A program made the position numbers. A stretch of DNA of 36,373 nt, from the NCBI RefSeq assembly GCF_054482525.1, contig NZ_JBTHVG010000006.1; one strand, written 5' to 3'. Origin of the DNA: a plasmid. Below are positions 15,001 to 18,000 of this stretch, in pieces (the first letter of the stretch is position 1; every line of letters starts with the position of its first letter).

Positions 15001-18000
15001 TCTCGATCCAAAAAGGGAGTGTTTTAATATCACCAGTCTTATCAGGAAGGTGATTTTAGGTCATGAGGTTTATAAATTTGATCCCTTTAGTTCGGTAACG
15101 CACCGCTTTAACCCTTTGTATTATGTCAGCATGGGAACGAGTGAAGGTTTTAATCAGCTTGAAAATCTTTCGTTGATTATTTACCCCTATAAGACAGATG
15201 GTGCGGATGCTGGTAGCTATCTTAATAAGACGGCGGGTGGTGTTTTTAAATCTTATGCTGTCGCTTTATGGTTTATGATTAAGAATGATAAGGCTGGACT
15301 AAAAACGCTTGATATTGAGCCTGTCTTCTCAATGTCTAAAATTAATCAGCTTTTTGAGCGTGCAGAACCCGAACATCTTCTTTCATTCATGAATGATATT
15401 CGTTCAGAATTAAGGGGGAAAGACAAAACGCTTGCTGATATTGGTGTCGCTGGCCTTAAGGCATTCATTGAGATGGAGGATAAAACAAAAGCACAACTCA
15501 AAAGCAACTTTCTTAATGGATTATCACCGTTTGCTAACCCCAATGTGGCAAATGCTACTGATGGAAATGATTTTGATTTGCGGCAGGTGCGGAAAAAGCG
15601 GATGACAATTTATTTCTGTATTTCTGGTGATAATGCCAGGTTGGCTGAAAAAATAACAAATATTTTCTTTCAGCTTGCTATACAGGTGAATCTTGAAAAG
15701 ATGCCAACGGATGATCCGGAAATAAAGCATGACTGCCTTTTTCTACTGGATGAATTCCCGTCAATTGGTGCTGTAGATTACATCAAGAGTAAATCTGGTC
15801 TCATTGCTGGTTACAAGCTGAAATTGTTGATTGTTTACCAGGTCGGCTCTCAGCTTGAGGAAATCTACAGTTATGCAGGCAGTAAAACATTACTGGCAAG
15901 TGCACCCTGCAAAATTGTTTATTCCGCTTCTGATGTTAAAGATGCGCGGGAGTTATCAGAAGCGATGGGGACACGAACAGTAACTATCGGTTCGAAAAGC
16001 AAAAGTCGTAGTCGTGGAGGAACATCGAGATCTGAATCAGAAAGCCTTATTGAGCGTCCACTGGTAACAACAAATGAACTACTTACACTGAAATTTAGTG
16101 AAGAAATCCTGGCAATGAAGGGAGAAAACCCGATTCGTTGTGAAAAGGCATTCTACTATCTCAATGAGTATTTCTTTGGTGATTTTGTGAGGGTTGCTCC
16201 GGAACTTGCAAACATTTTCCCCAGGAAGAAAGGAAAGCTGGTTATGCCTCCACAGAAAGTATTTGAAAATGAAATCGTCGCAAAAGGGTATCTGGCAGTA
16301 AAAGATGTTCCTGATCTCAATAAAGCGGCATAAAGGAGAACATGATGAAGAAGTTAGTGTTTTTATTGATTTCCATTCTTGCTGGTTGTTCATCACCGCC
16401 AGAGCCAACACCCGTGCAGTTTGAAAAGGCAAATGAAATGATCAATCCCTCATTGCCATATGTCCCCGATTTTCACGGTGTCATAAAGTCAGACGTTAGC
16501 GGTAAAGGATGGGTTTATGAGATCACTTCCTTATCCGGAGTACAGGCCAGAACGCCGACGTTTTATTACGCTCTGGCTCATGCGGACAGGATTGTAGTGA
16601 CAACACATGATGCTGGGCTGTGGTTTCGAATCAGAGATCTGTTGAAGATGGAAGGGGCAACAGCAGTCGTTGAATGGCGAAACGAGAAAAGTTTTTTACC
16701 TGAACAGGGAAAAATAGTTTTCATTAAAGCACAAAACGAGGTGAAAAATGACTGGAAAAAATAGAGTGGTTTTACCAGCCTTGCTGGCGTTAGGATTAAT
16801 ATCAACAAATGCTAATGCATCTGACCCTTGCGCTTCGGTACTTTGCTTATATGGAAAAGCAGTCGGGCAAGGTGGAGGGAGTGAATGCAGAAGTGCTGAA
16901 AAGGATTTTTTTAATATTCTGAAAAAGAAAAAAGGAAGCATTCGCTGGAGCAAAACTTTTGATGCCCGTAAAGCATTTCTGAATCAGTGTTCAACGGCTG
17001 ATCCGGCTGCTATCTCAAAAATTATGAGTAAGTTCGGTAAGATTAAGGGGTAGATGATATGAAAAAAAAAGAAAAGATTGATTTTCTTAATGCAATAAAA
17101 GCAGGGCACTCTGGCTTTATAGCTGGTAATCCTGCTCATGCATTGGATGATAAGACTATGAACGCCATCATTCATAACTACGAGGCAACGATTGCGCCCG
17201 GTAAAGCAGGTAACTGCAAAGAAACTCCTCTCACAAAGTATTGTTCGAGGACTATACCAGAGCGTATTTCAGTTGAAGAAATCAATGAGGTTAAAATTTA
17301 TCCAGAGTTATTCTGAACTGAAATAAAGGCAAACGCCGCAGATTCCGGATTTTAATCCGGGATTTGCGGGGTTGAACAACCGAAGGGCGTTAGTTTCCTC
17401 GTTATCCATGAGGTGTATATGAAAGCAAGAAGTGTGAGAGTTGCCGGAATTGAAATTATCGATAGTGTTAAAACGGTCGCTTCTGTTTTTACTGAAACCT
17501 TACTGTTTATGGTCTGGTTTTCGGCAATTGTCTATGGGCTTTATCGTGTTGTTATCGTTTTATGGGATGATCCTTTAAAGCCGCAATCGCTCATGGAATT
17601 TCTTAATTTCATAGTTGAGTTGTATAGCTATGTACTTCCTTCGTTGGCTGTTATCGCAGTGGCTTTAATCGCCGTTTTATCCATTTGTAAAATACTCTCA
17701 GCAATATGGGAGGGAAGAAAACAATGAGACATTTTCTTAAGGCTCTTTCCTTTGTTGTTTCCCTGTTACCAGCTACATTGTGTGCGGCTGAAATCCAGGG
17801 GAAAGTTATTCGCGTTCTCGATGGCGACACCATAGAAGTTAAAACACTACCCGCAAAAATTGTTGTGTATGAAGTTCCGATTCGAGTCCGATTGATAAAT
17901 ATCGATGCCCCTGAAAAGAAACAACCTTTTGGACGCTGGTCAACAAATCAACTTAAAACCCTGCTCGCAGGCCAATCCGTTACCGTCTCTTATACGCAAA

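Follow-up and report, generated by a model that had tools for sequence, protein, structure and literature searches.

In the IncX4 plasmid pHNSHP23, a single PixR-dependent start site lies upstream of cds9, the transcript was followed by RT-PCR through trbM, and trbM is co-transcribed with the pilX operon (PMC8725589). Overexpression of PixR in pHNSHP23 raised trbM 4.8-fold and cds6 13-fold, and eex has been placed upstream of pilX1 in IncX4 (PMC8725589). A transposon screen in IncX4 returned 18 genes needed for transfer, with trbM and cds6 not among them (PMC8725589); this screen was run on agar, where adhesins count least, and exclusion, which acts on the recipient side, was outside its scope. 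The hallmark of the TrbM/KikA/Pep family is a Sec signal peptide together with four conserved cysteines, and the members tested showed donor-side promotion of mating and contact killing (PMC13311141).

We analyzed a 36,373-nt stretch of DNA (the window), which is an IncX4 mcr-1 plasmid with 1729 related plasmid records. The region considered here is 100% identical to pKP4823_mcr and comprises four small ORFs downstream of the gene for the coupling protein TaxB, named 'relaxosome-coupling protein TaxB' by PGAP in an identical record. An earlier note on this DNA had described four tightly packed genes for exported or membrane proteins, with good Shine-Dalgarno (SD) sequences, and all four ORFs are present on the plus strand where it had placed them. 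The features are as follows:

4106..4321, plus strand: gene for an EexN-family lipoprotein, likely the entry-exclusion gene (NCBIfam NF033894)
14471..16333, plus strand: taxB, VirD4-type coupling protein, directly upstream of ORF1 (Pfam T4SS-DNA_transf, 314 bits)
16342..16764, plus strand: ORF1, 140-aa lipoprotein of the outer-membrane type, Cag12-like/VirB7-like (lipobox LAGC, SD AAGGAG)
16748..17053, plus strand: ORF2 (trbM), 101-aa TrbM/KikA/Pep-like protein, predicted to be exported (Pfam TrbM, SD GAGGTG)
17059..17316, plus strand: ORF3 (orf85), 85 aa, with permuted VirB11 motif segments (SD AAGGGG)
17062..17070, plus strand: run of nine A (A9) encoding Lys2-Lys4 of orf85, the longest homopolymer in the window
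17332..17373, plus strand: conserved hairpin (folding and covariation across 8 distinct sequences)
17419..17727, plus strand: ORF4 (orf102), predicted two-helix inner-membrane protein (hydropathy, PGAP start)
17724..18218, plus strand: nuc, secreted staphylococcal-nuclease-type enzyme, downstream partner of ORF4 (Pfam SNase, 91 bits)

The start of ORF2 overlaps the end of ORF1 by 17 nt, and ORF3 begins 5 nt past the ORF2 stop. Not all four genes are packed tightly, as ORF4 is set apart by a gap of 102 nt that contains the strong conserved hairpin. All four are real genes, with annotations in hundreds of plasmids and with nonsynonymous differences among the compared plasmids that are rarer than synonymous ones. 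The best explanation of the locus, to which we assign a probability of about 0.68 as a whole, is that the IncX4 pilX/virB transfer operon has its 3' tail in this region and gives way there to an accessory cassette that can be swapped. In this view, ORF1 and ORF2 would be mating accessories, orf85 a relic, and ORF4 and nuc the cassette, with exclusion left to EexN. The analysis below shows directly how the genes are built, how they relate to known families and folds, which deletions occur, and that the A tract is polymorphic in length.

ORF1 begins with MMKKLVFLLISILAGCSS, in which the lipobox LAGC ends at the lipidated Cys16 and is followed by Ser at +2. The Pfam model Cag12 (PF13117) aligned with ORF1 at 20.0 bits (E 9.9e-4, profile positions 52-96), below its gathering score of 22.7, and matched 24 of 31 aligned ORF1 homologues with a best E value of 5.5e-20. 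These homologues required a full HMMER scan, as a word-index search gave close relatives only. Through this chain of homologous full-length relatives, and with its own Pfam score just under the cut-off, ORF1 looks like a Cag12/CagT-type protein. In a profile of the ORF1 family, the N-terminus (residues 1-39) matched TrwH (E 1.4e-3) and TraN (E 0.043), both of them weak matches driven partly by the signal peptide; the aligned stretch includes CSSPPxP and ..VN..LP. In VirB7 lipoproteins, a short proline-rich segment of the PVNK type that binds VirB9 comes after the lipobox. The C-terminus of the same profile matched CagT (E 0.29). The AF2 model of ORF1 has a pLDDT of 82.7, and the top three Foldseek matches in the PDB were all CagT (6oee_A, E 9.7e-4; 6x6k_AT; 6x6s_AT), at a modest TM score of about 0.45, with the matched chains belonging to the Helicobacter pylori outer-membrane core. 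We infer both location and role: most likely, ORF1 is a decoration on the type IV secretion system (T4SS), at its outer-membrane core. It would be a VirB7/CagT-like accessory mating factor that acts on the donor side, is co-transcribed with the pilX genes, and is not strictly required for transfer. When genes are counted across the 15 kb that are induced, cds6 of pHNSHP23 probably corresponds to ORF1.

ORF2 matched Pfam TrbM (PF07424) with 35.4 bits, where the gathering score is 21 (E 1.3e-8), over profile positions 10-60 of 156 only, and PGAP assigns it the family name 'TrbM/KikA/MpfK family'. Its signal peptide, read by eye, is MTGKNRVVLPALLALGLISTNANA, which ends in ANA before the residues SD, and its four cysteines lie at positions 28, 33, 47, and 81. 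By profile match and hallmark features, ORF2 is a member of the TrbM/KikA/Pep family. The protein would be exported through Sec, disulfide bonded, and adhesin-like, and would help the donor make productive contact with a recipient; like ORF1, it would be an accessory factor on the donor side rather than a strict requirement for transfer. An adhesin role in IncX4 is suggested by family membership, and the function of the TrbM family may be system-specific, given that the TrbM homologue of R6K failed to complement RP4.

The hairpin at 17332..17373 has a stem of about 18-19 bp (a 15-bp core with three outer pairs) and a loop of 3-4 nt, and the 116-nt stretch around it has a folding energy of -39.8 kcal/mol (z score, -3.8). 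Across 8 distinct sequences, the stem shows one compensatory change from G-C to A-U, two changes from G-U to A-U or G-C, and no broken pairs; its 3' flank is conserved to about 17394. Rfam gave no match over 16000-18500 at E values up to 1, and a scan of the 17317-17418 gap called neither a terminator nor a sigma-70 promoter. An intrinsic terminator was not called because the hairpin is followed by no U-tract. A site like attC, proposed from the combination of a hairpin and a variable cassette, was dropped: the sequences diverge after GTTAGT rather than between the G and the TT, and an integrase is absent.

ORF4 could start at GTG 17413, giving 104 aa, but PGAP and the SD GAGG (17410-17413) favor ATG 17419, giving 102 aa. 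It contains two hydrophobic stretches at about residues 19-49 and 61-99 of the ORF. Searches of Pfam, NCBIfam, PADLOC, and PHROGs gave no usable family match for either orf102 or orf85. The orf102 family comprises 74 clusters among Enterobacterales, mostly on contigs of IncX size. An IncX3 protein in the same position is 86% identical to ORF4, and across IncX lineages the slot is occupied by three unrelated small membrane proteins; for the membrane-protein cassettes that other IncX lineages have in this place, Pfam matches were sub-threshold noise only. ORF4 overlaps nuc by 4 nt (ATGA), in the arrangement of a translationally coupled pair, and the nuc product carries the signal peptide MRHFLKALSFVVSLLPATLCAAE. 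We infer a functional link between the two: ORF4 would be a small protein of the inner membrane that is co-produced with Nuc, the secreted nuclease, as part of a cassette that differs between IncX lineages.

The expectation of four exported or membrane proteins with an envelope function is borne out for ORF1 as a lipoprotein, ORF2 as a Sec-exported protein, and ORF4 as a two-helix membrane protein, but orf85 has neither a signal peptide nor a hydrophobic segment (maximum 19-residue Kyte-Doolittle mean, 0.37), and hydropathy rules it out as an exported protein. When a profile of the orf85 family was compared with all PDB sequences, VirB11 came out on top, with three motif stretches matched (2gza_A, E 2.8e-6; 6bge_A, 5.1e-5; 1g6o_A, 5.6e-5). 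Against the VirB11 encoded by the plasmid itself, BLASTP gave E values of 2e-5, 4e-4, and 1e-3, and hhalign gave a probability of 81% (E 1.2e-5). The segments occur in a permuted order in orf85, with a His box followed by a degenerate Walker A motif (GKAGNCKET) and then the Walker B region. At 85 aa, with a Walker A that is not GxxGxGKT and segments out of their native order, orf85 lacks a complete RecA-type domain and cannot be an ATPase. It would be a small cytoplasmic ORF that arose through the scrambling of motifs from the VirB11 ATPase.

Several observations suggest that orf85 is a relic that is dispensable and weakly constrained. Its dN/dS is 0.26-0.66; the corresponding values are 0-0.29 in trbM and, for the most part, 0.14-0.30 in nuc. 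IncX3 has no orf85, and pmcr1_IncX4, of the epidemic mcr-1 lineage, has lost orf85 together with orf102, nuc, and the greater part of the ATPase, yet is typed as conjugative. The family comprises 48 clusters only, all on enterobacterial contigs of IncX size. On some metagenome contigs, the gene appeared to lie in a different genomic context; this candidate was rejected, as the upstream gene there is a more divergent trbM (dS 0.9-1.6).

An alternative, which we consider unlikely, is that orf85 is a working mimic derived from VirB11, binding to the ATPases VirB11 or TaxB and tuning transfer. The motifs it has kept come from the interface region of VirB11, its first ~50 residues hardly vary within the family, its dN/dS is below 1, and it has a good SD and a position directly after the transfer operon. 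However, in a family this young and narrow, conservation is a weak argument, and the C-termini differ among members, in some cases through a frameshift. The degenerate Walker A motif also counts against a working protein, as does the AF2 prediction, which at a pLDDT of 50 gives no confident fold and a model too poor for a fold search. Lineages in which the gene is deleted or its frame disrupted also persist.

Entry or surface exclusion, the function that the earlier note had proposed for this site, is not supported for the four ORFs and finds a better candidate elsewhere in the window. The ORF at 4106-4321 scored 67.5 bits against the EexN model NF033894 (cut-off 33), and neither this model nor any other exclusion family matched ORF1 to ORF4. 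The EexN homologue, whose position carries the name eex in the IncX4 literature (PMC8725589), most likely provides entry exclusion. F-type plasmids have two exclusion genes, and a second system beside EexN is therefore conceivable, in which one or more of the four proteins would be an exclusion determinant on the recipient side. The candidates would be the lipoprotein ORF1 or the inner-membrane protein ORF4: the exclusion proteins known to date are small and of one or the other of these two kinds, and the three unrelated membrane proteins found in the ORF4 slot recall the allelic diversity of the TraS/Eex type. We nevertheless find this improbable. The absence of a family match and the bona fide EexN-family gene are joined by the VirB7/CagT-like signature in ORF1 and by the mating-promoting activity of the family of ORF2 (PMC13311141). 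The IncX4 lineage with the greatest success has lost ORF4, and ORF3 too, and ORF4 is translationally coupled to a nuclease gene.

The ATG-A9 sequence that the earlier note had reported at 17059-17070 is exact, and a single run of this length is not above chance: runs of at least nine are expected 0.8 times per window from shuffles and 2.9 times from a first-order Markov estimate, and one was observed. The window also has an A8 run at 5152-5159 and a T8 run at 10251-10258. AAA accounts for 71% of Lys codons here, and the run arises because MKKK is written with this preferred codon. Its length is not invariant. Among 88 plasmid records, 49 have exactly A9, at least 12 have A8 (12 exact), and at least two have A10; in 11 metagenome contigs, A9 occurs in 9/11 and A8 in 2/11. 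These A8 and A10 alleles represent at least five independent changes, every one of them out of frame. One A8 clade unites five sequences, whose origins are the USA, Japan, China, and a metagenome, and has 7-8 other differing sites; four further changes are independent of it. Isolates with A8 include E. coli F5656C1 and O111:H- 110512. Close relatives differ in the run as well: L012 and L023 (A8) differ from L026 and L014 (A9) at 2-4 positions over 1300 nt, and L009 (A10) differs from L005 and L017 (A9) at 4 positions. With A8 or A10 in codons 2-4, no in-frame ATG, GTG, or TTG remains for orf85, and PGAP annotates either no CDS at all or one with ATT as its start.

The slippage claim is partly supported: the length of the run varies and A8 and A10 recur independently, but the run is absent from the commonest allele, the protein is not surface-exposed, and one A8 lineage has kept its A8 while 7-8 other differences built up. 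The commonest IncX4 allele begins MEKQTT (ATG GAA AAG CAA), and its DNA has no long run. Other orf85 starts, read from protein sequences only, are MKKQTT or MKKETN, including the 73-aa variants. The tract is therefore not maintained across the family. These data are better explained by a hot spot of mutation, in a gene that is dispensable, than by a tuned on/off switch: slippage would repeatedly yield out-of-frame A8 and A10 alleles, and these would persist because losing the orf85 protein costs little.

A programmed contingency switch, in which slipped-strand mispairing toggles orf85 and selection maintains the run, is a reading we hold to be quite improbable. It can point to the position of the run at the very start of the ORF, to out-of-frame alleles that arose at least five times and make up about 14-20% of records, and to near-identical plasmids that differ at the run only (L012/L023 from L026; L009 from L005). 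A maintained switch is, however, hard to reconcile with alleles that have no run, including the commonest in IncX4 and the 73-aa variants, with a run whose presence is within chance, with a product that has no export signal, and with the absence or deletion of the gene in whole lineages. The IncX1 A8 clade, moreover, has kept A8 through a divergence of 7-8 sites, which indicates slow change at a modest rate. A more speculative combination is a long shot as a whole: orf85 would damp or tune conjugation via the transfer ATPases, slippage in A9 (at the DNA level and possibly in transcription) would create a reversible, heritable mix of states, and the hairpin element at 17332-17394, with the three alternative, unrelated small membrane-protein genes fused to nuc behind it, would mark a site of cassette exchange. 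If this were true, the exchange site could set a specificity that separates IncX lineages, for instance in exclusion or in the control of the nuclease. Sequencing by 454, Ion Torrent, and nanopore is prone to homopolymer miscalls, and some of the A8 or A10 variants seen in one record may be such errors. That all are sequencing or assembly artefacts of a run that is truly A9 everywhere is very improbable: some variants are single records, for example pSH146_32 at 32,447 bp beside relatives of 32,448-32,449 bp, but the five A8 sequences come from different laboratories and countries and form one clade with other shared differences, pSH146_32 is identical to an independent metagenome contig (L012) over 1300 nt, A8 included, and the out-of-frame share is similar in metagenome assemblies and plasmid records.

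IncX4 is a main vehicle of mcr-1 colistin resistance, and it helps to know which of its backbone genes matter for spread. Under the reading of an operon tail followed by a swappable cassette, exclusion would move from the site proposed earlier to the EexN homologue, and two conserved genes would gain accessory mating roles, one as a CagT/VirB7-like lipoprotein and one as a TrbM-like adhesin. From the epidemic lineage, the variable stretch to which ORF3 and ORF4 belong is gone. Recurrence of A8 and A10 calls for caution in annotation and in plasmid typing by single-nucleotide differences, and these alleles offer a cheap test case for homopolymer slippage on plasmids. The principles of conjugation are unchanged by these results, and the mcr-1 IncX4 plasmid was already well known.

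Compared with known systems, orf85 shares with simple-sequence contingency loci and A/T-run slippage sites a nine-A run at the start of an ORF and frame-breaking one-base variants among close relatives. It departs from such loci in three ways: alleles differ in whether they have the run, the gene is dispensable, and its product is not exposed at the surface. The His-box, Walker A, and Walker B-region segments of the VirB11/HP0525/CpaF secretion ATPases are recognizable in the orf85 family, but these ATPases have about 340 aa, whereas the orf85 family has 73-88 aa and lacks a complete nucleotide-binding domain. EexN of the IncN plasmid pKM101 is a small lipoprotein whose gene lies in a transfer region of the VirB type, and it has the role earlier proposed for ORF1 to ORF4; its counterpart in the window is the gene at 4106-4321 and none of the four. 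With CagT (Cag12, HP0532) of the H. pylori cag T4SS, ORF1 has in common a globular domain of the Cag12 type and a predicted fold, and with the VirB7 lipoproteins TraN (pKM101) and TrwH (R388) it appears to share the lipobox, a proline-rich segment after the Cys, and the ..VN..LP segment; all are encoded in a T4SS operon. The proteins differ in size, as ORF1 has 140 aa, CagT about 250-280 aa (179-253 residues in the solved chains that were matched, at about 10% identity), and VirB7 about 45-50 aa, and the plasmid has a separate short VirB7 (10631-10759). VirB7 and CagT are also core parts, whereas ORF1 is apparently dispensable for transfer in the IncX4 transposon screen. TrbM (RP4, R751), KikA (R388), Pep (pKM101), and TivB12 (R6K) are adhesin-like accessory proteins of T4SSs. 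RP4 TrbM has 199 aa compared with 101 aa for ORF2; TivB12, which did not complement RP4, and ORF2 both lack the C-terminal extension. ORF2 resembles TrbM, KikA, Pep, and TivB12 in its Sec signal peptide, its four cysteines, the position of its gene beside transfer genes, and its non-essential nature.

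The stretch from 16300 to 17760 is 100% identical to the IncX4 plasmid pKP4823_mcr from Klebsiella pneumoniae and is common, at least in part, to 1729 plasmid records; the four-ORF region is ordinary and was annotated before, in a plasmid family that has been sampled very well. The gene order runs from the relaxase gene taxC through a 97-aa LuxR-type regulator (PixR in the literature), a 71-aa lipoprotein, virB1 to virB11 and taxB (VirD4), and then through ORF1 to ORF4, a secreted nuclease, an AAA ATPase, a 191-aa ORF, topB, hha and hns. The mcr-1 gene and the replication region lie farther along the window, beyond hns.

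4106-4321, + strand: 71-aa lipoprotein gene, between the PixR-like regulator gene and the start of the pilX operon
10631-10759: short VirB7
13456-14484: VirB11
17332-17373, + strand: hairpin of about 18-19 bp, upstream of ORF4
17724-20141, + strand: secreted SNase-type nuclease, 420-aa AAA ATPase and 191-aa ORF, separating the transfer genes from topB; of these, the nuclease and, for its greater part, the ATPase are lost in the epidemic lineage
26442-28067, + strand: mcr-1 (1303 bits, MCR-1 family model)
30347-31546, + strand: IS91-family transposase gene, downstream of mcr-1
33103-33278: seven to eight 22-bp iterons adjoining the rep gene

The 420-aa ATPase has only weak P-loop matches (IetA/IteA-like), and the 191-aa ORF matched no family. 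Near the window end, by a DnaJ-domain gene, two direct copies of a sequence of 300 nt or more (33880-34179 and 35960-36259, 99% identical) lie 2080 nt apart, which suggests that some 2.1 kb have been duplicated; at 34,685 bp, the matching record is shorter than the window.

The gene structures described in the earlier note were all found: four ORFs with their Shine-Dalgarno sequences, a LAGC lipobox, a signal peptide, two hydrophobic helices, and ATG-A9 at 17059-17070. That note took all four products to be exported or membrane proteins and thought an envelope function plausible, which holds for three of them; ORF3 (orf85) has neither an export signal nor a membrane segment. The tight packing also breaks down between ORF3 and ORF4 (most likely start, ATG 17419), which are separated by a 102-nt gap with a strong hairpin.

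In the epidemic mcr-1 IncX4 type (pmcr1_IncX4, KU761327, 33.3 kb), trbM is followed by about 200 nt of other DNA and then by the final ~130 nt of the ATPase gene (positions 3255-3565 there, versus 17054-19430 in the window); therefore, orf85, orf102 (ORF4), the nuclease gene nuc and most of the AAA ATPase gene have been lost. The unrelated DNA holds a 19-codon ORF (MKVTKSIIAILLCLSAGSA). Despite the deletion, pmcr1_IncX4 is typed as conjugative, and its type accounted for about 9 of 60 rows sampled at even spacing from the ranked plasmid matches. Compared by eye, the published primer trbm-pilx11-F fits trbM at its 3' end as found in this type but not as found in the window, which places the IncX4 plasmid pHNSHP23 in the pmcr1_IncX4 type. 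IncX3 plasmids carry cag12-trbM-orf108-nuc without orf85, and orf85 is present in IncX1 plasmids. Divergence between taxB of IncX4 and taxB of IncX1 or IncX3 is saturated, and IncX4-specific sequence takes in all that lies upstream as well as trbM through its signal-peptide part, whereas mature trbM (from ~16811), orf85 and the hairpin (to ~17396) are 92-100% identical between IncX4 and IncX1 (L005, L007 and other IncX1 loci), and the orf102 region (17425-17759) is 91.6% identical to IncX3 NDM-5 plasmids. From these identities, the tail is a recombination mosaic, recently exchanged between backbones.

The hairpin is kept in eight distinct sequences from IncX1 and IncX4 plasmids. None of these breaks a pair of the stem; one pair changes in a compensatory way and two go from G-U to Watson-Crick. 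The 116-nt stretch containing the hairpin folds with a z of -3.8. The hairpin has no Rfam match and no U-tract, and the scan calls no terminator or promoter there. Its conserved 3' flank stops at ~17394, precisely at the start of three alternative, unrelated small-membrane-protein cassettes of different lineages. ORF4, which has two membrane helices and an ATGA overlap with nuc, belongs to a family of 74 clusters among Enterobacterales, mostly on IncX-size contigs. In IncX1 and other IncX4 lineages, its position is occupied by unrelated small membrane proteins (144 aa or 105-112 aa), each of whose genes overlaps nuc by 4 nt.

The orf85 family is narrow, with 48 clusters that all come from IncX-size contigs of enterobacteria, and has no domain match. 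Conservation covers the N-terminal ~50 residues; among the several versions of the C-terminal half, two are frameshifted. One member of 73 aa matches the plasmid's own VirB11 locally at three places, the His box (E 1e-3), Walker A (E 4e-4) and the Walker B region (E 2e-5). Against all PDB sequences, the top matches of the family profile are VirB11, HP0525 and CpaF (best E 2.8e-6), with the His-box, Walker A and Walker B segments in permuted order and the two Walker pieces joined as if through an internal deletion; hhalign against the plasmid's own VirB11 gave a probability of 81%. In the window, Walker A is degenerate (GKAGNCKET). The dN/dS of orf85 is 0.26-0.66, compared to 0-0.29 for trbM and mostly 0.14-0.30 for nuc, and AlphaFold gave no confident fold (pLDDT 50). 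Thus orf85 seems to be what is left, in scrambled order, of a (second) virB11 copy, in some lineages probably still translated; a working small ATPase mimic is possible but unsupported.

The earlier note also suggested that the A9 run might switch orf85 on and off by slippage. One run of at least nine was observed, where shuffles lead one to expect 0.8 per window and a first-order Markov estimate 2.9, so that composition by itself predicts such a run. The run spells MKKK with AAA, the preferred lysine codon here (71%), and the commonest full-length IncX4 allele, which starts ATG GAA AAG CAA, lacks it. The length of the run is not invariant. Among 88 plasmid records with an A-run allele, it is exactly A9 in 49, exactly A8 in 12 and A10 in at least 2, and we read A8 or A10 directly in eight fetched records; an independent scan of metagenome contigs found A9 in nine and A8 in two. 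We compared the variants over 1300 nt around the run. Five A8 sequences (two from E. coli in the USA, one from Japan, one from E. albertii in China and a metagenome contig) form one IncX1 clade whose members differ at up to 8 other positions, so their A8 is inherited and real, and sequencing artefact is rejected as the sole cause of the variation. Elsewhere, pSH146_32 and a metagenome contig are identical and both A8, with nearest relatives (2-4 differences) at A9; one IncX4 pair has A8 and A10; and one IncX1 plasmid has A10, with relatives (4 differences) at A9. There were at least five independent length changes, each out of frame. The A8 and A10 alleles retain no in-frame ATG, GTG or TTG, and annotation either falls back on an ATT start or calls no gene. 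Frequent change in length is therefore borne out, but a maintained switch is not: because the run is absent from other alleles, the product is cytoplasmic, the plasmid can dispense with the gene and A8 is stable in a diverging clade, the evidence points to a mutational hot spot in a weakly selected gene. Nine-A runs in E. coli also provoke transcriptional slippage, which by analogy could leave the A8 and A10 alleles leaky.

Entry exclusion, for which the earlier note thought the four-ORF site plausible, probably belongs elsewhere. None of the four ORFs matched an exclusion family, and the 71-aa lipoprotein (MKKYLLFALPFFVVGCSEE...) at 4106-4321 reaches 67.5 bits with the EexN family (cut-off 33). 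In IncX4, eex lies upstream of pilX1 (PMC8725589). By family and position, this lipoprotein is likely the exclusion gene of the plasmid. Given also the donor-side nature of ORF1 and ORF2, exclusion at the four-ORF site is unlikely; ORF4, a membrane protein, is a formal candidate at most.

ORF2 exceeds the gathering score of Pfam TrbM (35.4 bits); it carries four cysteines and a signal peptide of the Sec type. The published qPCR primer qtrbM-R, compared by eye with the window sequence, falls within ORF2, so the published trbM and ORF2 are one gene. In pHNSHP23, trbM is the last gene of a single PixR-activated pilX transcript, PixR induces trbM and cds6, and neither is among the 18 genes that a transposon screen in IncX4 found to be required for transfer (PMC8725589). 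We infer that cds6 corresponds to ORF1, since no other gene of the induced 15-kb region remains without a name. Four proteins of the TrbM/KikA/Pep family enhance conjugation and/or conjugation-associated killing; the R6K member has the predicted domain, yet did not complement RP4 (PMC13311141).

On its own, ORF1 scores 20.0 against Pfam Cag12, just below the cut-off of 22.7. When 1.8 billion representatives were scanned in full with HMMER, 48 relatives came up; among 31 that were aligned, there is hardly any departure from the lipidated Cys or the motif CSSPPxPxPV, and 24 match Cag12 (best E 5.5e-20). The first 39 positions of the family profile align with the VirB7 lipoproteins TrwH (E 1.4e-3) and TraN (E 0.043), and its C-terminal part aligns weakly with CagT. 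The best three PDB matches to the AlphaFold model (pLDDT 82.7) are all CagT from the outer-membrane core of H. pylori (6oee_A, E 9.7e-4). These matches lead us to see in ORF1 a second VirB7-like lipoprotein, of the CagT style, that presumably acts in the secretion channel and is encoded separately from the short VirB7 of the plasmid.
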